Shown piece by piece: positions 4,920 to 39,488 of a DNA stretch of 64,000 nucleotides. The translations under genes were made by a program, and so were the position numbers. The stretch comes from an uncultured Acidobacteriota bacterium (GTDB lineage Bacteria; Acidobacteriota; Thermoanaerobaculia; UBA5066). Position 1 is the stretch's first letter. Each line of letters starts with the position of its first letter. A model generated the notes under the pieces. It ran no database searches. It saw nothing but the letters and a program-made list of their open reading frames with translations, and was not told the DNA's origin. The stretch is from NCBI GenBank assembly GCA_963779415.1, contig CAVZYA010000001.1, positions 516,519 through 580,518 on the forward strand, given 5' to 3'.

Positions 4920-6053
4920 ATGAAAGAAGTCAGAAAGTCGTTCTTCCGGTTCGTTCTTCCAGCCGCGATCGTCGTTACGATTCTGGTGGCCGCGGCGCCC
5001 GCAAACGCCCAGGCCATCCTCAAGGTCTCGGACACGGTGAACCTCAAGTTCGGCATCCTCATGCAGGGGTGGGCCGACTGGCAGCAGACCCAGGCGGCTG
5101 GGGAGACGAATGGCTACGCGCAGAACCTCTTCCTCCGCCGGATGCGCATCCTGATGGCCGGCCAGGTCGCGAAGGACGTCACGTTCTTCCTCGAGACGGA
5201 CGACCCCAACCTCGGCAAGGCCCCGAAGAATCTCTACAACGTCGCGGACACGGCGACTTCGCCGGGATTCATCATCCAGGACGCGTTCATGCAGTGGAAG
5301 ATCGCGAACGAGTTCATGATCCAGGGCGGCCTCATCCTGATCCCGCTCTGCCGCAACTGCAACACGAGCGCCGCCTCGCTGCTGACGCTCGACTATGGAT
5401 CCTTCTCCTTCCTCGAGAGCGCGACCACGCAGTCGGTCGTCGGCCGTGACACCGGCTTCCAGGCCGTGGGCTATCTCCTGAGCGATCGCCTCGAGTACCG
5501 GGCCGGCGCTTATCAGGGCTTCCGCACGGCCAACTCCCACAACTCGTTCCGCTTCACCGGACGCCTCCAGTACGACTTCCTCGACGTCGAGAAGGGGCAG
5601 TTCTACCCGGGCACCTACCTCGGGAAGAAGAAGGTCCTCGCGATCGGCGCCGGCTACGACACGCAGGGCGACTACAAGGCGTACGCCTTCGACGGCTTCC
5701 TCGATCTCCCGGTCGGAAAGGGGAACGGGCTCACTGTCGAGGCGGACTTCGTCCACTACGACGGCGGAACCTTCTTCACGACCATGTACAACCAGGACAC
5801 GGAGATGGTCCGGGCCGGCTTCTACTTCGGCGGCGTCAAGCTGATGCCGTTCCTCCAGTACGAGAACGAGTCGTTCAAGGACGACATCCGGAAGGTCCTG
5901 AACAGCAGGAACTTCCAGGCGGGCCTCGCCTACTATCCCTACGGCTACAACTTCAACATCAAGCTCGCGTACACCCTCCGCGAGAGGCCGAACGACCCCG
6001 TGACCGCGAACACGAACGAGTTCACGCTCCAGATGCAGCTTTTCTACTTCTGA
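4920..6053 (+). CDS. Outer-membrane beta-barrel porin (phosphate-selective porin O/P-like)
   Basis: Signal peptide (MKEVRKSFFRFVLPAAIVVTILVAAAPANAQA), alternating amphipathic strands and a C-terminal ...LQMQLFYF ending in Phe. RBS GGAAAGGGATAA precedes the ATG. Confidence 0.6.
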   Translation: MKEVRKSFFRFVLPAAIVVTILVAAAPANAQAILKVSDTVNLKFGILMQGWADWQQTQAAGETNGYAQNLFLRRMRILMAGQVAKDVTFFLETDDPNLGKAPKNLYNVADTATSPGFIIQDAFMQWKIANEFMIQGGLILIPLCRNCNTSAASLLTLDYGSFSFLESATTQSVVGRDTGFQAVGYLLSDRLEYRAGAYQGFRTANSHNSFRFTGRLQYDFLDVEKGQFYPGTYLGKKKVLAIGAGYDTQGDYKAYAFDGFLDLPVGKGNGLTVEADFVHYDGGTFFTTMYNQDTEMVRAGFYFGGVKLMPFLQYENESFKDDIRKVLNSRNFQAGLAYYPYGYNFNIKLAYTLRERPNDPVTANTNEFTLQMQLFYF

Positions 6054-6118: not shown

Positions 6119-7345
6119 ATGGCGGAGGAAAAGCTACCCAACCGATGGATCATGGTCGTCGCGGCGCTGGTGATGCAGATATGCCTCGGCATCCTGTACG
6201 CCTACAGCGTCGTCCGGGGGCCCCTGACGAAGGAGCTCGGCTATACCGTCAAGGAAACCGGATACCCACTCATGGCCTCGTTCTTCTTCTTCGCGGTCGG
6301 CATGATCGTGGCCGGCCGCTGGCAGGACAAGGCCGGGCCTCGAACGGTCGGGCTCTTCGGCGGCGTGCTCCTCGCGATCGGGGCTGCGGTTGCCGGTGCG
6401 ATGTACAAGGACCTGACCATGCTGGTCATCGGCTACGGGGTCCTCGGTGGCCTCGGCGTCGGGTTCGCCTACGTCACACCGATCGCAACGTGCATCAAGT
6501 GGTTCCCTGACAAGAGAGGCACGATCACCGGCCTCGCGGTCTTCGGGTTCGGCGCGGGGACTCTCGTATTCGGGCCGCTGCTCTCCAGCCTCATCGCCAG
6601 CAGCGGCATCGCCACCACCTTCTACACCGTGGCCGTCATCATGCTCGTCTTCGTCTGTGGCTCCGCGGCCGTCTTCAAGGTCCCGCCCGCGGGCTACAAG
6701 CCCGCCGGATGGAACCCGCCGGCGCCCGCGCCGGGCGCACAGGTGATCAAGACGAACTACCTGCCGAGCGAGATCATCAAGACCGGCTCGTTCTGGATCC
6801 TCTGGTTCACCTACTTCATCGGCGCGTCGGCCGGCCTGATGATCATCGGGCAGGCGGTTCCCATCGGCGTCCAGGTGGCCAAGCTCACCGCGGCGGTGGC
6901 CGCCGGCGGCCTCGGCGTCATGGCCCTCCTGAACGGCCTCGGGCGGCTCTTCTGGGGGAGCGTCTCCGACAAGCTGGGCCGGACGAAGACCGTCATCGTC
7001 ATGTTCGTCGTCTACATCCTGGCCTTCGTCTTCGTCCTCCCGAACAGCAATACGTTCATGCTCTGGCTCGTGGGCATCTGCGCGGTCGGCTTCGCTTACG
7101 GCGGATACCTCGCTCTGATGCCTTCGCTCACGGCCGACTACTTCGGCACGAAGTCGCTCGGGGCGAACTACGGCTACCTCTTCACCGCGTGGGGCGTGGC
7201 CGGCGTGGGTGGCCCCTTCATGATCGACTGGATCAAGACGGCGACAGGCGCCTTCACGAACGCGATGTACGTCACGGCGGCCGCCTGCGTCGTCGGAATT
7301 ATTCTCGCTGCGATCGCGAAGCCCCCGAAACCGGAGGCCGCATAG
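6119..7345 (+). CDS. MFS transporter, oxalate:formate antiporter (OFA) family
   Basis: 408 aa, 12 predicted TM segments, OFA-type N-terminus (ILYAYSV...GYPLMASFFFFAVG...GRWQDKAGPR). RBS GGAGGATAAGGAGG upstream. Paralog at 49208..50467. Confidence 0.85.
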   Translation: MAEEKLPNRWIMVVAALVMQICLGILYAYSVVRGPLTKELGYTVKETGYPLMASFFFFAVGMIVAGRWQDKAGPRTVGLFGGVLLAIGAAVAGAMYKDLTMLVIGYGVLGGLGVGFAYVTPIATCIKWFPDKRGTITGLAVFGFGAGTLVFGPLLSSLIASSGIATTFYTVAVIMLVFVCGSAAVFKVPPAGYKPAGWNPPAPAPGAQVIKTNYLPSEIIKTGSFWILWFTYFIGASAGLMIIGQAVPIGVQVAKLTAAVAAGGLGVMALLNGLGRLFWGSVSDKLGRTKTVIVMFVVYILAFVFVLPNSNTFMLWLVGICAVGFAYGGYLALMPSLTADYFGTKSLGANYGYLFTAWGVAGVGGPFMIDWIKTATGAFTNAMYVTAAACVVGIILAAIAKPPKPEAA

Positions 7346-7466
7346 ACTTAGGAGAGAAACTCTCGTAAGTGATAAGCCCGCGGGGCCGGGAGTTCCGGGC
7401 CCGGCCTCGTGGGTCATCTCTCGCAAGGCACCGGATTCGCTCCGTCAGACTTAATAACGTGCCTTC

Positions 7467-8966
7467 ATGGAGGTCCAAAACATGGCGGAAAAAAGAAATG
7501 TCGAGATCAAGAGCCGACAGGACACGCTGGCTCTGATCACTCCAGAAATCAGGCCCTGGCCTGTCTCACCACCCCCTTCGCCGGAGGAAGTGAAGAAGTC
7601 CTACGCCAAGCGGAAAGCCGAGGTGTTCGGCCAGTGGCTCGAAGACAACATGCGTCTCGAGTATTCCTGGCAGAAACCCGAGGCCCTGCAGGGCCTGAAG
7701 GTCCTCGACATCGGGCTCTGGAGGCTGGGGCACAAGTTCGGCGCCTCCACGCTCGCGCAGGCCGGTGCCGAGGTGATCTGTATCGAGCCCCCCACGGGCG
7801 ACCCGCTCAGACAGCTGACCCCCTTCGGGCGGGAAGAGTACATGCTCGCCGACAAGGAAACCGGCGAGAAGTGCGGCCTCGGGTTCATCGACATACACCG
7901 GAACACGCACTCGGTCACCCTCAACGTCGAGACTCCGGAGGGGCAGGAGCTGTTCAAGAAGCTCGCGGTCCACGCCGACATCGTCCTTGACGGGATGCTC
8001 CCCGGCTACATGGACAACCTCGGGATCGGGTACCGGGACCTCTCCCAGATCAACTCCCGCCTCATCTACGTGAACGTCATGCTCCGGGGATCCTGGGGCC
8101 CGGCAAAAGACCGCGTCTCCAAGTTCGGCCAGTGGGAACTGGATCCCTTCGCGCAGGCGACCAATTCGTACATTCACAACACCGGCTTCGCTCAGGACGC
8201 GCTGCCGCGCGGCAAAGGGGGCGACCCGACCCGGGCCGGGTCGTGGCTCGCCGACTATGTCGCCGGCGAGCAGGCGGCCGTCAACGCCCTCGCGGCGATC
8301 TACTGGCGGGAAGAGGTCAGCAATGAGGGGCAGTTCATCGAGGTGACCGGCGCCGAGACCCTGATGGACATCCTCGACTTCGACATCTCCTGGTACGGCT
8401 TCAACGGCAGCATCAAGGCGCGGACAGGGGGATGGGACCCCAACCTGAACCAGTATGCGTGGAACCCGTGCCGGGACGGCTACATGATGATCGGCGGCCA
8501 GAGCGACCGGCTCTGGTACCGGATCGGCATGTGCATCGAGCGGGACTTCCCGCAGTTCGGCCGGCTCATCCACGAAGACCCCTTCCTGAAGGAAGTCGGC
8601 GCGCGGAACGCCCTCCACGCCCTCATCAAGACCTACACCGTCACGACGCGCTGGCTCCGGGAGACCAATCGGATCGAGGCCGAAGAGAAGCTGATGGACT
8701 ACGAGATCGCGGCCGGCCCGCTCCTCTTCATCGACGAGACCTGCGAGTTCCCCCACTTCAAGTACCGGCCCTGGGTCTACAACTGCGAGACGGACTACGG
8801 GACCGTCCTCTACTCGACGGTCAATAACGCCTATCAGATGAGGACGCCGCACCGGGTCAAGTGGCTCGGGAGACGGCTCGGCAAGGACAACTACGACGTC
8901 TACCAGCGCTGGGCCGGACTGGGCCCGAACAAGGTGGACCAGCTCAAGGGAAAGGGGGCGATCTAA
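7467..8966 (+). CDS. CoA-transferase family III (CaiB/BaiF/Frc-like), subunit 1. Alternative ATG at 7482 has the better RBS (GGAGGT).
   Basis: GLKVLDIG...[22 protein letters not shown] matches the family-III N-terminal Rossmann signature. 499 aa. Stop TAA overlaps the ATG of the next gene (TAATG). Confidence 0.85.
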
Positions 8967-10354
8967 TGGCCGGCGAGATCAGACCCAAGAGTGCGGGCGA
9001 GCTGCATGAGATGCGGGCGCCCTACGAGGAGTTCTGCCGGAAGGCCTTCGATCCCGGCAACGAGCACTCGAAGCCCGAGTCGCTGAAGGGGATCCGGTGG
9101 CTCTCCTGCACGATGTACATCTTCACGCCCCACTCGGCCGCGAACCTGGCCGAGCTGGGCGCCGAGGTGATCAAGATCGAGATCCCCCGGATGGGCGACG
9201 CCATGCGGCACACCTCGCCCTTCAACGAGGCGTACCTCTATCCCCTCCACGACACCCGGCCGGGGACGGGAACCGGGTTCGGGTTCACGAACGCCAACCC
9301 GAACAAGCACTTCATCTCCCTCGACTATCACGTACCGGAGATGCGGGAAGTTTTCTACAACATGGTCCGGCAGAGCGACGGGCTGACCGAGCTCTACCGT
9401 CCCGGGACCTTTGACCGCTGGAAGATGAGCTACCCGACCCTCGCGCAGATCAACCCGCGGTTCATCTACGTCTGGGGCGGCGGGTTCGGCTACGGGCCGA
9501 AGGTCTTCGGGGGCTCCTATGACATCCTCGCGCAGTCCCACGCCGGGTTCGCGTCCATCACCGGAATGCACGACTTCATGGGCGGCCACTGCTCCAAGTC
9601 ATCCAACTGGGTCATGGACTGGGCCTCCGGCACCCTGATCACGTTCGGGATCCTCGCCTCCATTCTCTGGCGCCGGAAGACCGGCCTCGGCACCATGATC
9701 GAGTTCTCGCAGGTGCAGACCTCCACGATGTTCACCGAGTATGCCGTTCCTCTTTACGGCCGGTTCGGCATCGTCCGGCAGCGGTGGGGAAACTGGGACA
9801 CCCAGCTCTGCGCCCACGGGATCATCCTTTGCGGCAAATCCGACTTCCCCGATGCCCAAAACCCGCAGGACAAGTTTGACGCCCGGTACGTCATGGTCTC
9901 CGCCTTCCAGGATGCGGACTTCAAGGAACTCTGCAACGTCGTCGGCCGGAAAGACATCTACGATAAATACAAAACGCACAAGGACCGGCTCGACCCCCGG
10001 GCCCAGGTCGACATCTACCAGGCGCTCGAGAAATGGGCCGGAGACAAGACCCGGGCGGCGGTGGTCAAGGTCCTGACCGACGCCGGCATCCTCGCCTCCC
10101 CCGTCATGAACGACCGGGAAGTCTACGAGTACGAGCACTACCGCGAGCGGGGCACCGTCCGCTGGATCGACGACCCCCTCTTCGGCGACTTCCTCCTGCA
10201 GGCCGGCTACAGCGCCGGCCACCTGGCCAAGACCCCGAGAAGGACGAACTGGATCTGGCGGCCCGTTGGCGCCGACAATGTCAAGATCTACCGGGATCTG
10301 CTCGGCTATCCACTGAGCAAGATCGAGGAGTGGTATGGCAAGGCCTACATCTAA
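8966..10354 (+). CDS. CoA-transferase family III, subunit 2 (paralog of the upstream gene)
   Basis: [42 protein letters not shown] signature. Translationally coupled to the upstream paralog, suggesting a heteromeric enzyme. Confidence 0.85.
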
Positions 10355-10368
10355 AAGGAGGCAGCGCC

Positions 10369-10854
10369 GTGTGTGACATCATCTGGTGCAAGAAGCAGGT
10401 TTCCGGCAAGACGTGCAACACCGTCAATTACCTGGACCCGTACAACTTCTGGAACTGGGAAGGCAAGGTGAACTGCGCCGAGTGCGGGACCGTCTACGCC
10501 ATCCACATGATCCAGGGCTTCATGTACAAGGGGCCAACGGAGAAACCCGGAGAGAAGCCCGACATGAGTCCCCTCTACGCCGACAAGCCGCTGGAGGGCT
10601 ACCGGTGTTACCTTCCCGGGATCGAGGGCAGGACGAGGCCTTGGCAGTGCCTCCCCCGACATATCTACCTCGGCCACGCGGACACGGTGAAGTGGAGCCT
10701 CCGCGGAAGACCCGTGCGTGGCTGGCGTCCTCAGCCGAAGTCTGCAGGCATCGCTGGAAGCTTCGGCCACAAGTGGGATATCGAGAAACTCTCACCGGAG
10801 ATCTGGGCCGAATACCAGGAGAAGCTGAAGAGCGGGAAGCTGAAGGACTGGTGA
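10369..10854 (+). CDS. Hypothetical Cys/Trp-rich small protein (zinc-ribbon-like N-terminus)
   Basis: GTG start 15 nt after the CoA-transferase stop, preceded by AAAGGAGG. Cys pattern C-x4-C-x8-C...C-x2-C. Coding-like composition, 161 aa. Confidence 0.5.
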   Translation: MCDIIWCKKQVSGKTCNTVNYLDPYNFWNWEGKVNCAECGTVYAIHMIQGFMYKGPTEKPGEKPDMSPLYADKPLEGYRCYLPGIEGRTRPWQCLPRHIYLGHADTVKWSLRGRPVRGWRPQPKSAGIAGSFGHKWDIEKLSPEIWAEYQEKLKSGKLKDW

Positions 10855-10876
10855 GACATTCAGAAAGGAGCGCCAC

Positions 10877-11137
10877 ATGGCCGAGGGAAAACAGTTAACG
10901 CCTGAAGAATTCCTGGCTACGGTTCTCGTGCCGCAGTATGGCCGGGAAAGCGGGCACATGTGCTGGGATTGCAAGCACTTCAAACCGGTTCTGAAGGGCT
11001 CCAAGTTCCCGCCCACCGACACGATCGGCTGGTGCACGCAGATCCACTGGCCCTTCTACTGGTGCGTGACGGACTTCAACGTCGTCAAGAAGTGCTACGC
11101 CTTCGAGAAGGGCATTTACACCTTCAAGAAGTTCTGA
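10877..11137 (+). CDS. Hypothetical small Cys/Trp-rich protein (86 aa)
   Basis: RBS AAAGGAG 8 nt upstream of the ATG. CxxC plus three further Cys and many Trp. Tight spacing with neighbours. Confidence 0.55.
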   Translation: MAEGKQLTPEEFLATVLVPQYGRESGHMCWDCKHFKPVLKGSKFPPTDTIGWCTQIHWPFYWCVTDFNVVKKCYAFEKGIYTFKKF

Positions 11138-11138
11138 C

Positions 11139-11432
11139 ATGGAGGAGAACGTCCGGAAGGAGCTGGATACGCTCACGGGGATGGTGCTGACCTGGAAGAA
11201 GGACTATCTCGGGTCGGTATCATCCGATGAGGACTGCGAGTACCTCGCTCGGGAATTCCTGGACGAGGTGGAGACCCACGTCTACCCCTACGTGAGGAGG
11301 CTCATGGAATGCAATTTCCTCACGGGACCGGAGGCGACGGAGTTTCTCGACTCCTGCTATCGCCAGGCAGAGGAGCTGAACAAAGCCATCCAGCAGCCGG
11401 ACGCCAAACAGGGTGAAACGATAGGAGGGTAA
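11139..11432 (+). CDS. Hypothetical small acidic helical protein (97 aa) ending in ...ETIGG-stop
   Basis: ATG overlaps the upstream stop (TGACATGG). C-terminal diglycine immediately followed by TAA. Next gene starts 3 nt later. Confidence 0.5.
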   Translation: MEENVRKELDTLTGMVLTWKKDYLGSVSSDEDCEYLAREFLDEVETHVYPYVRRLMECNFLTGPEATEFLDSCYRQAEELNKAIQQPDAKQGETIGG

Positions 11433-11434
11433 AC

Positions 11435-11854
11435 ATGGCTGAGAAATGCCGAGTGGGGGTCTGCGGGTACGACCCCGTTCTGGTGAAGGGATACGTCAAG
11501 ACAGGCGAGCGAGCCCTCTGGTGGCACCTGTCGGACGAGGTGTACGAACAATACCAGGTGAAGCCGGGTGACACCGTCACCGGGAAGATCCTGGCGGTTT
11601 ACGACGGGACCGGCACGAAGACGGCCTCCCCGAACGAGCCCTTCGAGTGGAAGTGCCCGAAGGAGTCGGGCCTGGCGGTCCTCCTGCCGCCTGCGACCAT
11701 CGTCAAGTTCAAGCTCTCCGCTTTCCATTTCCTCGAGCTGCTCGTGGAGAAGGTCGGCGGAAAGGACGTCTATCCCGGCAAGGAGCAGATGAGCTTGAAA
11801 TGGTGGCCCGAAGAGAGGATGAAGCTCGACTACAAGGTGCCTTACATCGAGTAG
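11435..11854 (+). CDS. Hypothetical protein (139 aa)
   Basis: RBS GGAGGG upstream. Coding-like composition. Last gene before the intrinsic terminator. Confidence 0.55.
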   Translation: MAEKCRVGVCGYDPVLVKGYVKTGERALWWHLSDEVYEQYQVKPGDTVTGKILAVYDGTGTKTASPNEPFEWKCPKESGLAVLLPPATIVKFKLSAFHFLELLVEKVGGKDVYPGKEQMSLKWWPEERMKLDYKVPYIE

Positions 11855-11948
11855 AACACAGGACGCTCTCTCCCCCGCTCCCTTGAAGCGCCGGTTCCGT
11901 TCGGACCGGCGGGCAAGGACCGGGCGGGGCGAAATCAGTCGCTCACGG

Positions 11949-11994
11949 CCCCCTCTCCTGGCCCTGAAGCACCAGGAGAGGGGGATTCTTTTTC
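11949..11994 (+). terminator. Rho-independent terminator: 13-bp perfect stem CCCCCTCTCCTGG / CCAGGAGAGGGGG, 10-nt loop, then ATTCTTTTTC
   Basis: Perfect inverted repeat followed by a T-tract on the + strand only. Sits 95 nt after the stop at 11854 and ends the OFA/CoA-transferase/small-protein operon. Confidence 0.75.
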
Positions 11995-12048
11995 ATGTAT
12001 CCTCGGCGATGGAACGGTGACATTCGATCGGAAGGGAGAATCGCGTAC

Positions 12049-12291
12049 ATGACAGAACACGACAAGCCGAATGAAGAGGGCTACACGGCTCCGGCGTACG
12101 TCGACCCGGCGATGGGCGACAGCCCCCCCGTCGGAGGCCTGATTGACAACGAGGCCGTCTGCCGGGACTGCATGACCGCCGCCGAGGAAGTCAGCATGCG
12201 GCGCGGGTTTGTCGACCCCGTCTCCGAGCAGCAGGCCAAGGCGAAGGGGACCGTCTGCGCCCGGTGCGGCAAGAAACTCGTCGCCGCGTAG
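12049..12291 (+). CDS. Hypothetical small protein with two CxxC pairs (zinc-ribbon-like), 80 aa
   Basis: ATG at 12049 preceded by AAGGGAG. CRDC...CARCGKK motifs. The upstream in-frame ATG at 11995 lies inside the terminator T-tract. Confidence 0.45.
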   Translation: MTEHDKPNEEGYTAPAYVDPAMGDSPPVGGLIDNEAVCRDCMTAAEEVSMRRGFVDPVSEQQAKAKGTVCARCGKKLVAA

Positions 12292-12334
12292 CGCCCCCTT
12301 CAATCCAGCCGGACGGGGCGGGCGGAATCACCTC

Positions 12335-12748
12335 ATGGCAGAGCCGGAAAAGGCCCCACGACGAGAGGTCGTCGAGCAGCTCCTGCCGCTCGTGGTGGAG
12401 TTGATTCCAGGGCAGGCGGCTGAAGGCCTGATCGAAGTGCTCGAGCCGGGCAGCTACGAGGCCCATTCCCTCCGGACGCTTTGCGAGAATCTCCTCAGGA
12501 GAACGAACTGGAGCGTGGAGGAGCAGCAGGTCCTGGAGGACATCAGGAGACAGCTCGACGGGGGCCGGCTCCTCTGCCGGGGCCGACCCGTCGACGGCCG
12601 GGCTCTGGATCTCGCGGTGGTCGAGGAAACCGAAGCAGGCGAGAAGTATCTCTATGTGCCTGTCCACGCCATCAGGCCGCAGGAAGGCGGAGGCGCGGCA
12701 CCCCGGATCGCGCACCAAAGTTCAGCAGACGAGAGCAGGAGCCTATGA
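12335..12748 (+). CDS. Hypothetical protein (137 aa) and candidate ubiquitin-like modifier precursor: helical N-terminal half, then ...KYLYVPVHAIRPQEGGG followed by a 17-aa tail
   Basis: ATG at 12335 (MAEPEK...). Coding-like composition. The C-terminal half resembles a beta-grasp ending in GG(G), like MoaD/ThiS/ubiquitin tails, with a removable extension. Stop overlaps the next ATG (ATGA). Confidence 0.5.
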   Translation: MAEPEKAPRREVVEQLLPLVVELIPGQAAEGLIEVLEPGSYEAHSLRTLCENLLRRTNWSVEEQQVLEDIRRQLDGGRLLCRGRPVDGRALDLAVVEETEAGEKYLYVPVHAIRPQEGGGAAPRIAHQSSADESRSL

Positions 12749-12951
12749 GTTCCAGGTTCGTAGTCACGGAGAGCACCACGGTGGACGATGTTGCCGCGGC
12801 GGGCCGGCCCGACCCCCTCTACTGCAAACTCGGCCTGGGCCAGCAGGCCCGCGTCCTCGCGGACGAGATCGATGCCGCGCTTGGTGGGGATACGAGCTGC
12901 GGGGGCGCCGGACTCGGATATGTTCCGGACATCGTAGAGGTTGAAGAATAG
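12745..12951 (+). CDS. Hypothetical small protein (68 aa) with internal ...CGGAG... motif
   Basis: ATG overlaps the upstream stop; GGAG 8 nt upstream. Could alternatively be a spurious ORF. Confidence 0.35.
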   Translation: MSSRFVVTESTTVDDVAAAGRPDPLYCKLGLGQQARVLADEIDAALGGDTSCGGAGLGYVPDIVEVEE

Positions 12952-13159
12952 CCTGGAGAATCGCGTGGAGATAGAGGCTCCCAAGGACTGGGACCCGAAG
13001 TGCCCAAAGTGCCAGGAAGAGCTTCGACGAATGCTCGAGCTGTCACAGTCGGTCTACGAGGACCTCGACCACGGCGCGGGGTTGTACCGGTTGCCGTTGC
13101 CACCTTGCACGCACCATGCGGCGCAGGGCGAGCACAAAGACGCAGGAGGGGTCGCTTGA
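12941..13159 (+). CDS. Hypothetical small protein (72 aa) with CPKC motif
   Basis: Overlaps the previous ORF by 11 nt. Weak support; composition only. Confidence 0.3.
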   Translation: MKNSLENRVEIEAPKDWDPKCPKCQEELRRMLELSQSVYEDLDHGAGLYRLPLPPCTHHAAQGEHKDAGGVA

Positions 13160-13199
13160 CAGACCCACTTGTGGCTTTCCGGCCGTCGGGCGCCCCGGC

Positions 13200-14411
13200 A
13201 TGATGGATCTGCTGGAGTCCGACCTGGAGCTCGTCGTCCGGTCAGGATTCATCTACCTGCCGCTCCTCTTTGATCCTTCGGTGGCGACGGAGATCGAGGG
13301 GAACGTGGGCAATCACCTGGTCGCCCGGGACGCCGGCAGGCATTTCGTTCGGACGATGAGCCTGCGATCGCTCGTTTCAAGCTACGAGGCTCTCTGGCCG
13401 AAGTCGTACGAGAAGTTGCGGCGGTCGAAGCTGTGCCGGTTCTCCGGGGACCTTTCGCCGGCCGAAACGGGCGCCAGCGAGCGGCTGAAGGAGATCCTCT
13501 TCTCCGTCATGCCGCACTTCGTCAGGAGGGGGAAGCGGCTCGACAGGAGGCGGCTGACCGAGGAGGACGTGCTGGACCTCATCGAGGAGAGAACCGGACT
13601 TCCCGGCGGATACGCCATGGCTGCAGCCAGCGCTCGGGATCCGGGCTCCATCCGGCAGATCCTCGTGGAACTCGAGGAACGCCGCCCGGCGGCCGAGCCG
13701 CTGCCCGAGGGCCGAATGTCTGCGCGGACCCTCGCGGATTGGCTTCTGCGCGCCCAGGAAGCCCGGATTCTGGAAGAGGAGAGCCAGCGACTGACGGGGT
13801 TTCTCTCCGCGCAGGAGGGCCTCGATACGAGGGCGGCCAGGCGGCTGGCGATTTTGCGGTGCGTCGCGGAGAAGGGGACGTTGGAAATCGACGGATTCGG
13901 CTTTCTGAGGACAGGACCCGGCGACGACTACGTGATCTACAAGCGCACCGGCGAGTTCGCTCTCAAGGACTACTACGGTCGGCTCTATCTGTTTCCGGAT
14001 TGCCGGGTTGCCGTGTCGACGGCCGCTGGCCTCAGGCCCTTCGTCGTGGAGACCTACAAGCATCCGTTTCTCGAGGCCCACGACTCCGGCCAGGAGATCT
14101 GCCTGGGCCGCACCACGGCGCGCCGCTTCTCCGGAGCGGCGGCGATCGTCGAGGCTCTGCAGGAGGGAATCAACGCCCTGCTCCATGGCTACAGCAGCCG
14201 GCGCCGAAACGGGTACCACAGACTGGAGGGACTGTTGAGGTCGGTCCGGCTCCCTGGCCCGGACGATCCCGGCTACCCGGAACCGCCGGACGACAGGCCC
14301 CGCTCCAAGCGGCACATCCTGGACGTCGACTTCGACGACTACCGCATCCCGGCCGATCACCCCGGGATCGTGTCGGGTCGGGTCGAGATCACCAACGACG
14401 TCGTGCCGTGA
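13200..14411 (+). CDS. Protein with a C-terminal UBC/E2-like domain (HPF...GQEICLG) and a ~250 aa N-terminal domain of unknown function
   Basis: ATG-ATG at 13200. C-terminal segment LYLFPDCRVAVSTAAGLRPFVVETYKHPFLEAHDSGQEICLGRT...IVEALQEGINALL mirrors the UBC core: beta-sheet, HPN-like motif, then catalytic Cys in G-x-I-C-L. HPF codons at about 14061-14069, Cys codon about 14099. Confidence 0.6.
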   Translation: MMDLLESDLELVVRSGFIYLPLLFDPSVATEIEGNVGNHLVARDAGRHFVRTMSLRSLVSSYEALWPKSYEKLRRSKLCRFSGDLSPAETGASERLKEILFSVMPHFVRRGKRLDRRRLTEEDVLDLIEERTGLPGGYAMAAASARDPGSIRQILVELEERRPAAEPLPEGRMSARTLADWLLRAQEARILEEESQRLTGFLSAQEGLDTRAARRLAILRCVAEKGTLEIDGFGFLRTGPGDDYVIYKRTGEFALKDYYGRLYLFPDCRVAVSTAAGLRPFVVETYKHPFLEAHDSGQEICLGRTTARRFSGAAAIVEALQEGINALLHGYSSRRRNGYHRLEGLLRSVRLPGPDDPGYPEPPDDRPRSKRHILDVDFDDYRIPADHPGIVSGRVEITNDVVP

Positions 14412-14884
14412 TGACGACGGACGACACCCTCTCGCGGGACGAGCCGCCCCGGGCGACGCCGGATCTGTTGCGGGACATAAGAACCATGCGCGCCGGCAGG
14501 CGGCGGAAGGAGCCCTTTCGGACGAGCCTCTACTCCCGGGTCGGGGGTCTGGTGAGGCGATATGGCCTGGACGAGGCGTTCCTCCGGGCGCTCGACTCCC
14601 CGGGCGGCTTCTCCCGGGACGGCCGTCCGGATGCCGTCCGGCCGAAGGGGAAAGCGCCCTATGCTCCTCCCCTCTTTTTCCTTTCCACGGAGAGAGAGCA
14701 CCGCGTGACGACGGTCATCCTGGAGAAAGTGAAGAGCCCGTTCCTCGCGTACGCCACGTCGCCCGACGAGATTCTCCTCTGCGAACGCCTGTTCCGTGAG
14801 GACCCGTCCCTTTCTCAGGAAACGCTCGCGTGCCATCATTTCGAGACGTTGATGCCGGCCGGAGCGGATTCCGGGCCGGGCTGA
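14411..14884 (+). CDS. Hypothetical protein (157 aa), operon member
   Basis: ATG overlaps the upstream TGA (GTGATGA). Coding-like composition. Confidence 0.5.
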   Translation: MTTDDTLSRDEPPRATPDLLRDIRTMRAGRRRKEPFRTSLYSRVGGLVRRYGLDEAFLRALDSPGGFSRDGRPDAVRPKGKAPYAPPLFFLSTEREHRVTTVILEKVKSPFLAYATSPDEILLCERLFREDPSLSQETLACHHFETLMPAGADSGPG

Positions 14885-14899
14885 GGCGGGAGGAGAGTC

Positions 14900-16000
14900 G
14901 TGGAACGGATTTCGCCGCAACGCCGCCGGGAGATCGGGGAGAGAGTCGGCGCATTCCGCGAGAGCCAGGTCGGCGACGCCGTCAATCAGATTCTCGAGTT
15001 CGACAAGACGCCGGCCGACCTCAAGGCCTACATGGACCGGTTCGTCATCGGCCAGGAGCAGGGGAAGAAGATCATCTCCGTCGGCATCGCCTACCATTAC
15101 CGGAGGCTCGCGGCGGCCCTCAGGCGCGCCGTCGTCGAGAACGGCGAGGAGCTGGGCGCCGCCTTGCACGGCGCGGCCACGCCGAAGGCCAACATCCTGA
15201 TCGTGGGGCCCCCCGGCTGCGGGAAGACCTACACGGGCGAGGTCGCCTCCCGGCTCGTGGGGGTGCCGTTCGCCGTGGAGGACCTGACGAAGTTCAGCGA
15301 AACGGGCTACGTGGGCCAGAACGTGAGCGACATCCTCCTGGACCTGCTGATCGCGGCCGGCGGCAACCCCCAGGTGGCCCAGATGGGCATCGTCTACCTG
15401 GACGAGATCGACAAGATCGCCGCCGAGCCGATCGTCTCGAAGGACGTGTCGGGGCGCGGGGTCCAGAAGGGGCTCCTCAAGCTCGTCGAGGGGGCCGAGA
15501 ACACCATCGACCTGGGCCAAGAACGGATCTCCCTTTCCACCCGACACGTCCTGTTCATCGCAGGAGGCGTGTTCGAGGGGCTGGAAGGAACCGTCGGAAA
15601 GCGGATGGAAAGGGATCGTCTCGAAGGCGAGTGGAAGGACCACCTCCTCACGGACGACTTCGTCGGCTGCGGGATGGAGCGGCAGCTCATGGGGAGGTTC
15701 CCCGTTCGGGCCGTCTACGACCCGCTCAGCGTCGAAGACCTCAAGAACATCCTGCTCGAGAGCGAGGAGAGTCCGTCCCGCGCCTACATCGACGACCTGA
15801 AGGCGTGGAACATCGAACTCCGGTTCACGGACGGCGCTCTCACGGAGGTCGCGAGGCGCGCGCAGCAGGATCGGACGGGCGCCCGGGGACTCATCGGCAT
15901 CCTCCACAAGGTGCTTCTGGAGGACATGTACCGGCTTCCGGGCGTCCACACCGGCGAGCTGGTGGTGGACGAGAAGTACATCCGGGAGCGGCTCGGGTGA
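14900..16000 (+). CDS. ClpX-like AAA+ ATPase (unfoldase) lacking the N-terminal zinc-binding domain and the IGF ClpP-docking loop
   Basis: [22 protein letters not shown], Walker [25 protein letters not shown], Walker [30 protein letters not shown] and sensor-2 TGARGL all align with ClpX/HslU. 366 aa, against ~420 aa for canonical ClpX. Confidence 0.85.
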
Positions 16001-16050
16001 GATTCCGGGGGCTCTCGGAGCTGAAGCGCGCGCCATGCTTCGAGGCTCCC

Positions 16051-16803
16051 GTGGGAACCCTGCCGGAGTGGATCCGGATGACGCGTCACTCCCTCGCGAA
16101 GGCCTTCAAGATCAACGAGCTCGTCCGGTCCGTCCACGGGGACAGCTACGAGTGGTACGGATTCACCGTCGCCGAGCGGAGCGATCCGGAGCTGGTCGTG
16201 GACGTTCTTCTTCCGGCCAACGACGAGAACTTCACGGACCACACCCGCGTCGCACCCGAGGCGATCGACGCGTCGAGAGAGTCCCTCCCCCGGGATCGGG
16301 TGATCAACGGCTGGATCCACTCCCACGGGGCCCTGCCGTACGAAGGGTTCTCCTTCGTGGACGAGAGGAACCAGGAGGCCGTGACCGATTACGTGAACAC
16401 GCTTCTCAGGAAGCCGGTGGCCAAGAAGGAGATCCTGATCAGGGACCTCGCGATCCTCGTCGAGGGCCGCTTCTCGGAGAAGGAGCTGGAGCAGGGAAGC
16501 GTCGCGCTCATCACCGACGCCCCCGTCAAGGAGGCCCGGATCATCGAGACCATATACGGAAGCTTCTGCTTCGCCATCGTCATCGGCGACGACGGCTGGC
16601 ACAGGCAGCAGGTCCATTACCGCAGGCGGGGCATCCTTTCCGGGCAGACGACCGAGGAGAGCCGGGACACCGACATCGTCCTTTCGGGCGACGCGCGGCC
16701 GCTCACCGAGGCGGAGATCCAGATGCTGGCGGACGAGGTCCGCACCCGGATCCGGCCGGGCGTGGCCGTTCCACCCGAGCGGTTCGAGCGGGAGGCGACA
16801 TAA
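16051..16803 (+). CDS. JAB/MPN (JAMM) family metalloprotease, deubiquitinase-like
   Basis: Motif GWIHSHGALPYEGFSFVDE = H-x-H-x8-S-x2-D with upstream Glu residues. GTG at 16051 or ATG at 16078. Lies in the long frame after the ClpX-like gene. Confidence 0.75.
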   Translation: MGTLPEWIRMTRHSLAKAFKINELVRSVHGDSYEWYGFTVAERSDPELVVDVLLPANDENFTDHTRVAPEAIDASRESLPRDRVINGWIHSHGALPYEGFSFVDERNQEAVTDYVNTLLRKPVAKKEILIRDLAILVEGRFSEKELEQGSVALITDAPVKEARIIETIYGSFCFAIVIGDDGWHRQQVHYRRRGILSGQTTEESRDTDIVLSGDARPLTEAEIQMLADEVRTRIRPGVAVPPERFEREAT

Positions 16804-16840
16804 GGTCGGCGGCGGCCTGGGGCGAAGGGACGCGATCGGC

Positions 16841-18118
16841 ATGGAGACGGGACCGGCTCGCGAGAAGGCGCATGACCCGAGGCTGGACCGCCAGCTCCGG
16901 ATCCCGAACTGGAACCAGCGGGCCCTCGAGGAGGCGCGGCTCGCCGTCTTCGGCGACGACGACCTTCTCGCCTCGCTCTACGTCCTCTCCGCCGCGGCCC
17001 TCGGCGTGAACGACGTCGTCCTGATCGCGCCCGCCTGGAATGAGAAGCTGATCGAAATCGCCCGCCAGCTCAATCCGAGGCTCAGGCTGGCCCTCCTCGA
17101 GGGGCTCCACACCCACCCGGTCCTGGAGGAGCTCTTCAGGCCCTGCACGGCCATCGTGGACCTCACCCGCTACGCTCTGGCCAACAAGCTTCTGCTGGAG
17201 ACGGGCTACCGGTCGGGAATTCCGGTGATCCGTGGGTTCTGCCTCGAGAAAGACGGGTGGGAAGGGCTCTCCGTCTTCACCTACAGGCGCGGCCGGGAGT
17301 GGGAGGAGCTCCGGGAGCTCGTCTCGCCCTCCAATCTTCCCTGCGACCACTTCGACGACGCGATTCTGGCCCTCGTCGCGGCCGGCATCGCCCTGGAAGA
17401 AACCAAGAACGTCATCATGGGACACCGGGTGTCGGAGGAGCTGATCGGCTACAGGCGGCCGAAGGTGGTTCCCCTGGAGCCCGACTCCGGCGTCATCATC
17501 GTCGGCGCCGGCGCCCTGGGTAACTTCGTCGGGCTCGGACTGGCCTGTACGGGGCTCCGGCGAATCACGGTCGTCGATCCCGACGTGGTGGACGTGACTA
17601 ACCTCAACAGGCAGGTGCTCCTGGCCGGCGGCGTAGGCCGAAGCAAGGCCGAGGTCCTCTGCGAGCGCCTGCACTCCCTCTTCGGAATCCGGGCGGAGGC
17701 CCGGGTGGCTTATTTCCGGAAGGACTCCGAGCTCGACGCCTCCGACGCTGTCTTCGATTGCGTGGACAACTTCGAGACCCGGGTGATCCTGAGTGAGAGG
17801 TGCCGGGAAGAGGGAAAGGTGCTCATCAGCGGCGGCACGGGCCCTCAGGCCGGACAGGTCATCGTGTTCGATCCGGCGCGCCCGAGCGAAACGCCCGCGG
17901 AGGTTCTGGGACTCTACGAAATCGTCGAGAGGCGGGAGATCGACGCCTTCCGGAGGGAGACGGCGTCCTGCGCCTACCAGCCCGATCCGTCCGTCGTCAT
18001 GACGAATCAGATTATCGGAGGATTGATGGCCGATTCCTATCGTAGGCTCCTGGCCGGAGAGGAGACCCCGAATATCTTCTACGATTCGAGGAACGACGCC
18101 CGGATCTTCGGGGGGTGA
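16841..18118 (+). CDS. ThiF/MoeB/E1-like activating enzyme with a degenerate N-terminal and a canonical C-terminal adenylation domain
   Basis: N-terminal LDRQLRIPNWNQRALEEARLAVFGDDD... lacks GxGxxG. C-terminal IIVGAGALGNFVGLGLACTGLRRITVVDPDVVDVTNLNRQVL is the classic E1 nucleotide-binding motif. Cys in ...ETASCAYQPD is a candidate thioester site. Confidence 0.85.
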   Translation: METGPAREKAHDPRLDRQLRIPNWNQRALEEARLAVFGDDDLLASLYVLSAAALGVNDVVLIAPAWNEKLIEIARQLNPRLRLALLEGLHTHPVLEELFRPCTAIVDLTRYALANKLLLETGYRSGIPVIRGFCLEKDGWEGLSVFTYRRGREWEELRELVSPSNLPCDHFDDAILALVAAGIALEETKNVIMGHRVSEELIGYRRPKVVPLEPDSGVIIVGAGALGNFVGLGLACTGLRRITVVDPDVVDVTNLNRQVLLAGGVGRSKAEVLCERLHSLFGIRAEARVAYFRKDSELDASDAVFDCVDNFETRVILSERCREEGKVLISGGTGPQAGQVIVFDPARPSETPAEVLGLYEIVERREIDAFRRETASCAYQPDPSVVMTNQIIGGLMADSYRRLLAGEETPNIFYDSRNDARIFGG

Positions 18119-18191: not shown

Positions 18192-19415
18192 ATGAGCAGC
18201 GAGAACGACGTCGCGCAGACTCAGGAGGACCAGCCGATCGGCTGGCAGCGCCTCGGCGACGTCCTGACACCGCCGATTCCCGGCTTCGAGGACCTCCTCT
18301 TCCTTCCGAGCCTCGACAATCAGTCCTCCAACATCTACGTCCTGCCGGGGGACTGCGTAACGATCGTGGACCCGGGGAACGATTACACGGCCTTAATGGA
18401 GCTCTTCCCTGCGAGAGCCAGGCCCGAGGACGTCAGGAAGATCGTCCTGACGCACGGGCATTTCGACCACGCCATGGGGGCGCTCGAGTTCCTCAGGACG
18501 TATCCGGATCGCCCCACGGGCGCGCGCATCGAGCTGATCCTCCACGAAGGGGGTCCCGACCAGTTCAAGCAGACGGCGAGGGAGCAGGGCGCCTCCGTGA
18601 CCGAGGTACGGGGCGGGGAGACTCTCGAGCTGAGCGGCCTTTCCTTCGACGTGATCTACACGCCAGGCCATACCATCGACGGCATCGCCCTCTATCACGC
18701 CCCCTCGAGGACCGTCTTCAGCGGCGACGTCGTGCTGCCGCTCGCGGTAGCCGGACCCGATCCCAAGGCCGGGGGAAGCCTGGACCAGTACCTGTTCGGG
18801 CTGAGGGCGTTGCTCGCGAGGGAGATCGAGAACGTCCTCCCGGGCCACGGCCCCGTCGTCGGCCCGGGCGGGAGGAAGGTCATCGAGCAGACCTACGAGG
18901 CCGTCATGATGAAGCTCCTGGGGGTCGAGAAGCCGATCCCGTGGATCCAGGGTGCCATTCAGCTCGCGGAGCGCGGGCTGCTGGAAGAGGCCGTTTTCTG
19001 CGCCGGGAAAGAGCTGGCCCGCGACCCGGGGCACGCCAAGGCCCTCGAGCTCAAGGCCGTGTGCCTCAACGATCTCGGGCGGTCGTCTGAGGCCCTCGAG
19101 GTCCTGGATCGGCTGCAGGAGCTGCAGGCCGGCGACGATGCGTTCATCCACGTCGGCAGGGGATATGCCCTCATGGGGCTTGGCCAGTTCGAGGAGAGCG
19201 TCAAGTGCTTCGACGCCGCTCTCCGCATCACGCCGGGCCTGAGGGACGCGCTCGTCTACAAGGGGATGGCCCTCCATCTCTCGGGGAACCACGAGGAGGC
19301 CATGGACATCGAGCCCTTCAGGACGGAGTTCATGGGGCGGTTCCGGAGCGAGCTGCTCAAGGCGTCGCGGCCCGCCCCGAAGGATGGCCTCGCCGAAGGC
19401 ACTGGAAAGGCCTGA
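18192..19415 (+). CDS. Metallo-beta-lactamase-fold hydrolase fused to C-terminal TPR repeats
   Basis: LTHGHFDH (HxHxDH), TPGHT and a later His-Gly; C-terminal half has TPR-like A/L/G/Y spacing. 407 aa. Last gene of the operon. Confidence 0.8.
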   Translation: MSSENDVAQTQEDQPIGWQRLGDVLTPPIPGFEDLLFLPSLDNQSSNIYVLPGDCVTIVDPGNDYTALMELFPARARPEDVRKIVLTHGHFDHAMGALEFLRTYPDRPTGARIELILHEGGPDQFKQTAREQGASVTEVRGGETLELSGLSFDVIYTPGHTIDGIALYHAPSRTVFSGDVVLPLAVAGPDPKAGGSLDQYLFGLRALLAREIENVLPGHGPVVGPGGRKVIEQTYEAVMMKLLGVEKPIPWIQGAIQLAERGLLEEAVFCAGKELARDPGHAKALELKAVCLNDLGRSSEALEVLDRLQELQAGDDAFIHVGRGYALMGLGQFEESVKCFDAALRITPGLRDALVYKGMALHLSGNHEEAMDIEPFRTEFMGRFRSELLKASRPAPKDGLAEGTGKA

Positions 19416-19540: not shown

Positions 19541-21214
19541 GTGAGCACGATTCCCGAAAACTATCTTCCCCCGAAGGAGTTCCAACCCGAGCGGATCTAC
19601 AAGCTGAAGGAGTTCGCGAGCTACCCGGATCCGCTGAACAGCACCGAGGAGCTACTCGACAAACAGATCGCCGCGGGCCGGGGCGACAGCCCGGCGGTCC
19701 TCTTTGCGGACAAGGTCCTGACCTACAAGCAGCTTCTGGGGGCGTCCTGCAAGATCGGGAACGCGCTCCGGAAGCTGGGGGTCGAGGAGTCGGACCGGGT
19801 GTTGCTCCGCTCTCCGAACGTTCCGCCCGCCCTCTTCACGAACTTCGGGGTCCTGAGGCTCGGGGCGGTCATCGTCCCGACCTCTCACATGCTCTCCCCC
19901 CCGGAGATCATCCACATCGCCAACAACGCCGAGGCGAAGGTGATCGTGGTGGCGTCCGCGTTCCTCGAAGGGGTCATCAAGGCGCGCCCGAACCTGAAGA
20001 CCGTCAAGCACGTCATCGTCTTCGGCGGCCAGCCCGAGGAGCTGAAGAAGCAGGATCTTCTCTGCTACGAGGAGCTCGTCGCGAACGAGGCGCCGGCCTT
20101 CGCCCCGGTACGCCGTCCGCGCAAAGCCGTCGCCGTTCTTCTTTACACCTCGGGCACGACCGGCCTGCCGAAAGGGACGGTCCACTACCAGGAAGAGGCC
20201 CTGATCGTTCCGGACACCTTCGGCAAGTACGGATGGAACGTCCAGCCGGAAGACATCATCTGCGGACCCGCGCCCATCTCGCTGGCCGGCGGATACTCGA
20301 CCGTGGCGACGATCCCCTTCCGGTTCGGCGCCGCGGCCTCCCTGATTCCCAAATTCACGCCGGACGGGCTCTTCGAGACGGTCCAGAATCACAAGGTGAC
20401 GATCCTGAGCGCCCTCCCCACGGCGTACCGCAAGATGCTCGAGGTTCCCGGCGCGGAGAAGAAATACAACCTCTCCACCCTCCGCGTCCTGACCGGTGGC
20501 GGTGAATCGCTGACCGCAAAAACCTACAACGACTGGAAGGGGCGCTTCGGCCAGGAGATCTACGAGGGGCTCGGCACGTCGGAGATGATGTACGTCTTCG
20601 TCTCGAGCGTGGTGACGCGGAAAGTCAAGCCCGGCGCGATCGGCACCGCCGTCCCCGGTTACGAGATCCAGGTCATCACCGAGGAGGGAAAGGTCGCCAA
20701 GCCCGGAGAGCTGGGCCGGCTTTACGCCCGCGGGCCGACGGGGACGCTCTACTGGCGCCCGTACGAGGACGGCGGCAGCATGCTGGAGAAGCAGAAAGCC
20801 GTCATCCGCGAGGGGTGGGTGCTCGTCGGGGACTTCTGCACGATAGACGACGACGGGTACCTCAGCTTCGTGTCGCGCCAGGAGGACCTGATCAAGAGCT
20901 CCGGCTACCGGATCGGACCCGAGGAGGTCGAGGACGCTCTTCTCAAGCACCCGGCCGTGGCGGACGCCGGCGTGATCGGGGTTCCGGACCCCGTCCGGGG
21001 CCACAACGTCAAGGCCTTCGTCCTCCTGAGGCCCGGACAGACGCCGAGCGACGAGCTGAAGCAGCAGATCATCGACAGTTGCCGAGATCACATCGCGATC
21101 TACAAGCTTCCCCGCATCATCGAATTCACGAGCGAACTCCCGCGCACCCTCCAGGGGAAGCTCCTCCGGCGGGTTCTGCGGGACAAGGACAAGGGGGCGG
21201 CTCCCGCGAGCTAG
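19541..21214 (+). CDS. AMP-forming acyl-CoA synthetase/ligase (benzoate/aryl-CoA ligase-like)
   Basis: GTG at 19541 with AGGAGG 11 nt upstream. LLYTSGTTGLPKG (AMP-binding box I), YEGLGTSE, and C-terminal ...GKLLRRVL with Lys. Confidence 0.85.
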   Translation: MSTIPENYLPPKEFQPERIYKLKEFASYPDPLNSTEELLDKQIAAGRGDSPAVLFADKVLTYKQLLGASCKIGNALRKLGVEESDRVLLRSPNVPPALFTNFGVLRLGAVIVPTSHMLSPPEIIHIANNAEAKVIVVASAFLEGVIKARPNLKTVKHVIVFGGQPEELKKQDLLCYEELVANEAPAFAPVRRPRKAVAVLLYTSGTTGLPKGTVHYQEEALIVPDTFGKYGWNVQPEDIICGPAPISLAGGYSTVATIPFRFGAAASLIPKFTPDGLFETVQNHKVTILSALPTAYRKMLEVPGAEKKYNLSTLRVLTGGGESLTAKTYNDWKGRFGQEIYEGLGTSEMMYVFVSSVVTRKVKPGAIGTAVPGYEIQVITEEGKVAKPGELGRLYARGPTGTLYWRPYEDGGSMLEKQKAVIREGWVLVGDFCTIDDDGYLSFVSRQEDLIKSSGYRIGPEEVEDALLKHPAVADAGVIGVPDPVRGHNVKAFVLLRPGQTPSDELKQQIIDSCRDHIAIYKLPRIIEFTSELPRTLQGKLLRRVLRDKDKGAAPAS

Positions 21215-39430: not shown

Positions 39431-39445
39431 TGGCACGTTGATTGC
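39431..39445 (+). promoter_or_regulatory. Sigma-54 (-24/-12) promoter TGGCAC-GTTGA-TTGC
   Basis: Exact match to consensus TGGCAC-N5-TTGC, 43 nt upstream of the ATG at 39489 and divergent from the bEBP gene. The TTG at 39438 listed as an ORF start lies inside the -12 element. Confidence 0.7.
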
Positions 39446-39488
39446 CATAGAGGACCATGCGGGACGAACCGCAGCGCGGAGGGCTCGA

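Follow-up and report, generated by a model that had tools for sequence, protein, structure and literature searches.

Family-III CoA-transferases, which are viewed as self-sufficient homo- or heterodimers, rely on a catalytic aspartate (Asp169 in Frc/YfdW), from which an acyl-aspartyl anhydride is formed. In succinyl-CoA:(R)-benzylsuccinate CoA-transferase (BbsEF, PDB 9fn0), two paralogous family-III subunits lie side by side; the CaiB/CaiC, CarA/CarB and FldA systems share a logic of priming ligase and cycling transferase; and FldABC is a larger enzyme that physically includes its transferase. Here we analyze a locus on a 64,000-nucleotide stretch of DNA (hereafter the window) from an uncultured Acidobacteriota bacterium (Thermoanaerobaculia, UBA5066; GenBank assembly GCA_963779415.1, contig CAVZYA010000001.1, positions 516,519–580,518). 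Two family-III genes, A and B, are followed there by four small genes, S1–S4, and, farther downstream, by a gene for a metallo-β-lactamase-fold hydrolase with C-terminal TPR repeats (MBL-TPR). The original prediction, made from the sequence alone, had grouped A, B and S1–S4 with an upstream transporter and likened them to the oxalate (oxlT-frc-oxc) module. The catalytic core of the locus belongs to a known family, and the seven-gene unit formed by A, B, S1–S4 and MBL-TPR is absent from Pfam, NCBIfam, PADLOC, PDB and the literature searched. The reading that we favor, and whose probability we put at about even, is that the window harbors one copy of an undescribed operon of wide occurrence that encodes a multi-subunit enzyme, which would be built on a heteromeric family-III CoA-transferase and perform chemistry at the thioester level.

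A conserved gene unit built on two CoA-transferases

Gene A (positions 7482–8966, + strand) encodes a BbsE-like protein of 494 residues and gene B (8966–10354, +) a BbsF-like protein of 462 residues. Both match nearly the whole PF02515 (CoA_transf_3) profile, with 206 bits (E 9e-61) for A and 235 bits (E 1e-69) for B against a cut-off of 23.3. The A open reading frame opens at 7467 (first ATG), but the start is better set at 7482 because of the alignment of orthologues and of the presence of GGAGG 8 nucleotides (nt) upstream. The B start codon shares one base with the A stop codon (TAATG). The two proteins are about 25–28% identical, and their closest solved relatives are the two subunits of BbsEF: B matches BbsF best (9fn0_B, E 1.5e-27, versus only 2e-7 for 9fn0_A), whereas A is closer to BbsE (9fn0_A, 6.8e-17) than to BbsF (9fn0_B, 1.5e-12). 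On this account A and B look like a BbsEF-type heteromer, and the proposal of two paralogous, translationally coupled transferases of that kind is borne out by the TAATG overlap and the match pattern. As in BbsEF, the position of the catalytic aspartate is kept. The corresponding segment of B aligns with AALGDSNTG of YfdW and has Asp in 76 of 76 orthologues; that of A, aligned to the same site of 4ed9 and Frc (10uh), has Asp in the window and, across orthologues, Asp in 60 of 67 sequences and Ser in the other seven. B is thus predicted, from the conserved aspartate, to be always catalytically competent, and A usually so.

Downstream of B, all on the + strand, lie S1 (10369–10854; 161 residues, GTG start, Shine–Dalgarno sequence AAAGGAGG), S2 (10877–11137; 86 residues), S3 (11139–11432; 97 residues) and S4 (11435–11854; 139 residues), each representing an orphan family. 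The gaps that precede these four genes measure 14, 22, 1 and 2 nt; the values of 15, 23, 2 and 3 nt given earlier were coordinate differences, off by one. Every gene of the region has a Shine–Dalgarno sequence or a coupling overlap, and the G+C content at third codon positions (0.86–0.93) resembles that of the neighboring genes. The genes named in the original prediction are all present, on the + strand and at the positions given.

An S1 profile scan, with one genome per species, detected relatives in 360 species genomes, from which 80 loci were fetched; for gene-order counts, the proteins of the window were mapped onto 91 related loci. Across these 91 loci, the genes nearly always follow one another as A-B-S1-S2-S3-S4-(MBL-TPR), with S1 and S2 each detected in 89, S4 in 87, B in 81, A in 80, S3 in 78 and MBL-TPR in 66, the shortfalls mostly being due to contig ends. 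In a reverse test in metagenomes seeded with B, S1 came next after B in all 31 loci that extended more than 600 nt past B. Gene order and co-occurrence being near universal, the idea that the small proteins are partners of the transferase gains considerably. Sequence identities across phyla are unusually high for A (65–86%), B (68–87%) and S1 (72–83%), and amount to 47–81% for S4.

The carriers span about eight bacterial phyla, the bacteria being mostly anaerobic, and two archaeal orders. Desulfobacterota, Terriglobia, Methylomirabilota, Binatia, Anaerolineae, Margulisiibacteriota, Thermoplasmata and Methanocellales are among the taxa represented, and the genomes originate from soils, sediments, groundwater, digesters and hot springs. 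Cultured carriers are found as well, among them Desulfacinum infernum, Desulfacinum hydrothermale, Desulfosoma caldarium, Thermodesulforhabdus norvegica and Thermosulfidibacter takaii. In Thermoplasmata, Methanocellales, Desulfosoma and Desulfacinum, two CoA_transf_3 genes are followed by four size-matched small genes and then by a Lactamase_B plus TPR gene. Two Thermoplasmata loci (L006 and L007) depart from the common layout in that the transferase gene pair is inverted relative to S1–S4; there, IS605 OrfB/TnpB-like and IS66 transposase genes border the module. The presence of insertion sequences around the archaeal copies suggests horizontal spread and recent acquisition. A divergent, shorter module occurs in a Methylomirabilota locus (L093:1–1930), where the gene after the B-like one encodes a 130-residue S1-like protein and the next one a 197-residue protein whose S2-like N-terminus (E 0.002) is fused to an unknown C-terminal domain.

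The likeness to BbsEF has its limits. The relationship is remote (E 1e-27 for B and 7e-17 for A), both proteins exceed the characterized enzymes by 50–90 residues and carry long invariant sequence blocks not seen elsewhere, and the present module adds four dedicated proteins and the MBL-TPR gene. The bbs β-oxidation genes (bbsA–D, G and H) are found neither among the neighbors in the window nor in those related loci for which gene content was inspected. Full-text searching retrieved no description of the module in the literature; a benzene-degrader cluster with two FldA-like transferases comprises a different gene set. A defense function was rejected, as none of the module proteins (A, B, S1–S4, MBL-TPR) matched a PADLOC defense-system model.

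The small proteins and the MBL-TPR protein

None of S1–S4 matches a Pfam or NCBIfam family. That these short open reading frames could be spurious was a concern raised with the original prediction; they cannot be chance reading frames, since S1 has 117 homologues, most of them 60–93% identical, and S4 has 392, and such hundreds of conserved homologues rule the objection out. All are annotated as hypothetical and none has a Pfam domain.

S1 displays a Cys4 zinc-ribbon pattern in which C7, C16, C36 and C39 are invariant. Its AlphaFold2 model (predicted local distance difference test score, pLDDT, 87) consists of a β-rich zinc-ribbon N-terminal half and an extended, yet confidently predicted, C-terminal half, as would be expected of a subunit that wraps around a partner. 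Neither fold nor profile comparison gave a PDB relative for S1. S2 is Trp-rich; H27, C29, C32, C53 and C73 do not vary among 19 diverse sequences, and several Trp residues are conserved. A profile search of the PDB with S2 returned nothing; the only similarity seen otherwise consists of sub-threshold matches to the rubredoxin domain of PknG in six of the 19 sequences. The invariant patterns of potential metal ligands (Cys4 in S1, His plus Cys4 in S2) are consistent with the earlier suggestion that these proteins may bind metal. The companion suggestion, an electron-transfer role, finds no support: no redox-cofactor domain is found anywhere in the module.

S3 is acidic and is the least conserved subunit, with 29–63% identity in the 78 of the 91 loci where it was detected. 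A role as acyl-carrier protein was discarded, the "DS" motif of the window copy not being conserved. S4 is predicted to form a compact β-rich domain (pLDDT 90; predicted template modeling score, pTM, 0.84), for which no significant structural match was obtained: the best fold match in the PDB has an E-value of 0.024 and a template modeling (TM) score of 0.3–0.4. A relationship with PanD or another double-psi barrel enzyme was therefore rejected, the best candidate, the small archaeal protein PHS018 (2glw), reaching only E 0.07 and TM 0.43–0.60. Profile searches detected no S4 relative in the PDB and, among 1.84 billion representative sequences, no more than 22 proteins, most of which are short fragments from the family itself. 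As judged by these comparisons of sequences and predicted folds, S1–S4 are four protein families new to Pfam, NCBIfam and PDB.

How much should be read into the small proteins is the point on which the favored reading parts from a more conservative one, namely that A and B form a plain heteromeric CoA-transferase of the BbsEF, SmtAB or phthalate type and that S1–S4 merely stabilize, assemble or regulate it. The lack of similarity to catalytic domains in S1–S4, the zinc-ribbon and His/Cys motifs, which are typical structural metal sites, and the largely extended shape of S1 would all fit this alternative. We nevertheless regard it as rather unlikely, given that four separate conserved families, with 50–83% identity between phyla, represent a heavy investment if they only stabilize an enzyme and that S4 is a compact, autonomous and strongly conserved domain; moreover, we know of no characterized family-III transferase that needs accessory subunits.

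MBL-TPR completes the module as its seventh conserved gene and lies directly 3′ of S4 in most related loci. In the window it is displaced by about 6 kb (18192–19415, +; Pfam Lactamase_B plus TPR). The closest solved relatives of its MBL domain are LACTB2, YcbL and GloB. The domain thus aligns best with glyoxalase II/LACTB2-type hydrolases; in contrast to glyoxalase II, the module protein carries a C-terminal TPR domain and stays far below the GloB cut-off (45.4 bits versus 200.8 on TIGR03413), as it does below every NCBIfam cut-off. An AMP-forming acyl-CoA ligase gene (about 19541–21214, +; Pfam AMP-binding; start inferred from the Shine–Dalgarno sequence GGAGGAG) follows MBL-TPR directly in the window and in three related loci (L035, L094 and L095) and lies nearby in about seven others.

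S4 is followed in the window by an intrinsic terminator (11949–11993, +), identified by RNA folding and by reading the sequence, as the original prediction had stated: a perfect 13-bp G+C-rich stem (11949–11961/11972–11984) with a 10-nt loop is followed by the T-run AUUCUUUUUC (folding free energy −28.9 kcal/mol, z −2.9). A consensus scanner missed this terminator because the 10-nt loop exceeds its 8-nt limit. The interval between S4 and MBL-TPR (11995–18118) is occupied by a block of co-directional genes encoding a Zn-ribbon protein (12049–12291), three proteins of unknown family (12335–12748, 13116–14411 and about 14408–14884), a ClpX-like AAA+ protein (14900–16000), a 268-residue protein with a JAMM-like HSH-x8-S-x2-D motif and no Pfam match (15997–16800) and a ThiF/E1-like protein (16841–18118), which matches the E1 domains of PADLOC E1–E2 models and, weakly, the NCBIfam 6A-MBL model cap2_3. 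This block may constitute a ubiquitin-like conjugation or defense-type system.

Its position raises the question of whether the module itself serves protein modification, together with the E1-like (ThiF), JAB-like and ClpX-like neighbors, with S3 acting as a Gly–Gly tag. The block not only separates S4 from MBL-TPR in the window, it also lies 3′ of the module in four related loci (L012, L023, L027 and L037), with parts of it in further loci, and S3, which has a Gly–Gly end in the clade of the window, shows this end in eight loci. We consider this explanation very improbable. Each block gene was detected in only 5–7 of the 91 loci, a distribution that implies that the module functions normally in genomes devoid of the block, and the correlation between the block and the S3 terminus is incomplete, since L027 and L037 have the block and an S3 without Gly–Gly end. 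In addition, the C-terminus of S3 is not conserved elsewhere, and the codons of the two glycines, GGA GGG, coincide with the Shine–Dalgarno sequence of S4 (GGAGGG). A role of S3 as a di-glycine ubiquitin-like tag was rejected on these grounds.

Transporter genes and control regions

The transporter gene that had been included in the original prediction (6119–7345, +; Pfam MFS_1, NCBIfam NF049980) encodes a protein of the major facilitator superfamily (MFS). With 412.9 bits, its product passes the equivalog cut-off (320) of NF049980, the SfMCT L-lactate model, and is therefore predicted to be a transporter of this L-lactate/monocarboxylate type. The second transporter gene reported in the window exists (49208–50467); its product is 39% identical to the first and passes the same model (397.3 bits). 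On the OxlT model TIGR04259 (cut-off 335), the two fall short with 175 and 198 bits, respectively. Of the 91 related loci, only two have a similar MFS gene linked to the module, and two strong hairpins (7346–7414, +), predicted by RNA folding, separate the transporter gene from A in the window. The region 7346–7485 folds at −62.5 kcal/mol (z −4.4), the second hairpin having a 15-bp G+C-rich stem without T-run; these hairpins argue against simple read-through from the transporter gene into A and may act as a terminator. Because of the rare linkage and of the intervening hairpins, we treat the transporter as a local neighbor outside the conserved unit rather than as a part of it. Directly upstream of it, a gene for a porin-like protein (4920–6053, +) was found, which, at 121 bits, stays below the cut-off of 150 for the ExtI porin model of NCBIfam and is without a Pfam match; the porin-like protein and the MFS transporter may form an outer/inner-membrane uptake pair.

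Two of the rival explanations involve this transporter. The first is that the locus is a variant of the OxlT–Frc–Oxc oxalate/formate module that lacks the decarboxylase. As in the Frc–OxlT–Oxc module, a family-III CoA-transferase adjoins an MFS carboxylate transporter, here related to oxalate/formate antiporters, and the second-best NCBIfam matches of the transferases are formyl-CoA transferase models. However, the Frc, YfdE and OxlT models all remain far below cut-off: on the Frc models TIGR03253 (cut-off 504) and NF003809 (cut-off 442), A reaches 87–88 bits and B 136–141 bits. Furthermore, the transporter is of the SfMCT type and is not conserved with the module, and no thiamine pyrophosphate-dependent enzyme, and hence no candidate for the oxalyl-CoA decarboxylase of the oxalate module, is present among the annotated neighbors at 1244–25069 or the called neighbors of the related loci inspected. 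The absence of such a decarboxylase had already been pointed out in the original prediction, whose oxalate analogy is otherwise contradicted by the curated model scores and the unconserved transporter linkage; on these two counts we rejected the oxalate module, leaving it a next to negligible probability.

The second is a system dedicated to 2-hydroxy acids such as lactate, in which SfMCT would import the acid, A and B would make lactoyl-CoA or a related 2-hydroxyacyl-CoA, the S subunits would convert it and the MBL protein, which is glyoxalase-II-like, would hydrolyze 2-hydroxyacyl thioesters. Several family-III transferases, such as FldA, HadA and SmtAB, use 2-hydroxy acids and provide precedents; the adjoining transporter passes the L-lactate model and has a second copy in the window, and the closest named relatives of the MBL protein are hydroxyacylglutathione hydrolases. 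We hold this proposal to be improbable: a similar MFS gene is adjacent in two of the 91 loci only, the transporter gene is set apart from A by the hairpins, the MBL protein scores 45 bits against a GloB cut-off of 200, and no enzyme of lactate metabolism recurs nearby.

Regarding transcriptional control, a gene for a PAS/sigma-54 activator (roughly 750–790 residues) lies directly upstream of the module in 35 related loci, and a gene for a stand-alone receiver protein comes after MBL-TPR in 28. No such PAS/sigma-54 activator gene lies next to the module in the window. The sigma-54-like element proposed there, AGGCAC-N5-TCGC, is indeed present as AGGCACCGGATTCGCT (7426–7441, +; read from the sequence as a −24/−12-like string), 41 nt 5′ of the A start codon. 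Taken alone, AGGCACCGGATTCGCT is not significant, since GGCAC-N5-TYGC occurs twice in the window for 1.65 occurrences expected; the activator genes and a conserved motif of related loci lend it indirect support, and sigma-54 control of the window copy is plausible but unproven. About 25 related loci display a −24/−12-like motif, YGGCA-N6-TTG(T/A)A, 300–575 nt before A, which implies a long leader. In several of them (L040:6670–7090, L048, L050, L055, L084, L041, L046 and L054), the A leader opens at the sigma-54-like sequence TGGCAGGATTCTTG(A/T)A. Within one clade, the leaders contain an invariant hairpin, GAAAGGAGGUGAGA...GACGUCUCCUCCC, in which an arm resembling a Shine–Dalgarno sequence is paired with an anti-Shine–Dalgarno-like arm; a conserved leader hairpin is present in Desulfobacterales loci. 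Neither an Rfam family nor a conserved small open reading frame was found in the A leaders, and this conserved leader may be an undescribed cis-regulatory RNA. Elsewhere in the window, a near-canonical sigma-54 promoter string, GGCACGTTGATTGC, is found at 39432–39445, at the start of an open reading frame (39438–40880) and beside a divergent gene for an AtoC/PrdR-like sigma-54 activator (37944–39278, −).

A candidate enzyme complex

The favored reading, a multi-subunit enzyme organized around A and B, builds on what the sequences show: a set of genes that strictly occur together and in one order, conserved catalytic residues, invariant metal-ligand patterns and the lack of known families for S1–S4. 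From these we infer that the proteins form a physical complex, and likewise the type of reaction, the role of MBL-TPR as a thioesterase and the nature of the substrate. A and B would form the interlocked heterodimer typical of family III, with a catalytic aspartate in B and usually also in A that would pass through acyl-aspartyl anhydride and CoA-thioester intermediates. S1–S4 would serve them as dedicated partners and would most likely belong to the same complex as subunits. In the proposed cycle, A/B would load a carboxylic acid onto CoA, with succinyl-CoA, acetyl-CoA or a similar thioester as the donor. The resulting CoA thioester would be bound or converted by the S subunits without redox chemistry, through hydration/dehydration, isomerization, decarboxylation or cleavage, and A/B would then reuse the CoA for another molecule of substrate, as is the case in carnitine, caffeate and phenyllactate metabolism. 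A non-redox step is proposed because no flavin, NAD or Fe–S-cluster domain is recognizable. The glyoxalase-II-like MBL-TPR protein, docked via its TPR repeats, would hydrolyze the thioester for product release or proofreading, while the AMP-forming ligase, where present, would prime the cycle and, in many genomes, the PAS-sensor sigma-54 activator would turn the operon on.

Described systems in which a transferase works with an occasional priming ligase and further proteins include CaiB (with CaiD/CaiA and the ligase CaiC), CarA (with CarC and CarB) and FldABC. The module resembles them in this composition and differs from them in that S1–S4 are unrelated to crotonases, acyl-CoA dehydrogenases and 2-hydroxyacyl-CoA dehydratases and have no known fold relatives. 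A more specific version of the proposal, which we put forward tentatively and consider somewhat less than evenly probable, is that A, B, S1–S4 and MBL-TPR make up an undescribed enzyme in which a transferase heterodimer would serve as scaffold for four subunits of new fold, two of them metal-binding, and which would perform a new thioester reaction and have spread horizontally among anaerobes and into archaea.

Several observations weigh against a multi-subunit enzyme of this kind. No fusion protein linking S1–S4 with A/B was found, and S1–S4 are devoid of any recognizable catalytic domain, so that they might be purely structural or regulatory. The MBL protein, being below every family cut-off, could be a phosphodiesterase or a nuclease; its gene is absent from the Thermosulfidibacter-type locus and, in the window, is cut off from S4 by a strong terminator and the inserted 6-kb gene block. 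As for regulation, most related loci have no canonical sigma-54 promoter (TGGCAC-N5-TTGC type) upstream of A. Finally, no pathway enzyme that would point to a substrate recurs beside the module in the related loci.

Within these bounds, there is a substantial chance that the module represents a new kind of enzyme complex. Four new protein families, whose members the databases currently list as hypothetical, have been defined, and one clade of family-III CoA-transferases is tied, in at least 360 species genomes, to these four orphan families and to an MBL-TPR hydrolase. Since cultured carriers exist, the role of the module is directly testable. The association points to an unrecognized enzyme complex and probably to an unrecognized step of anaerobic carbon metabolism.

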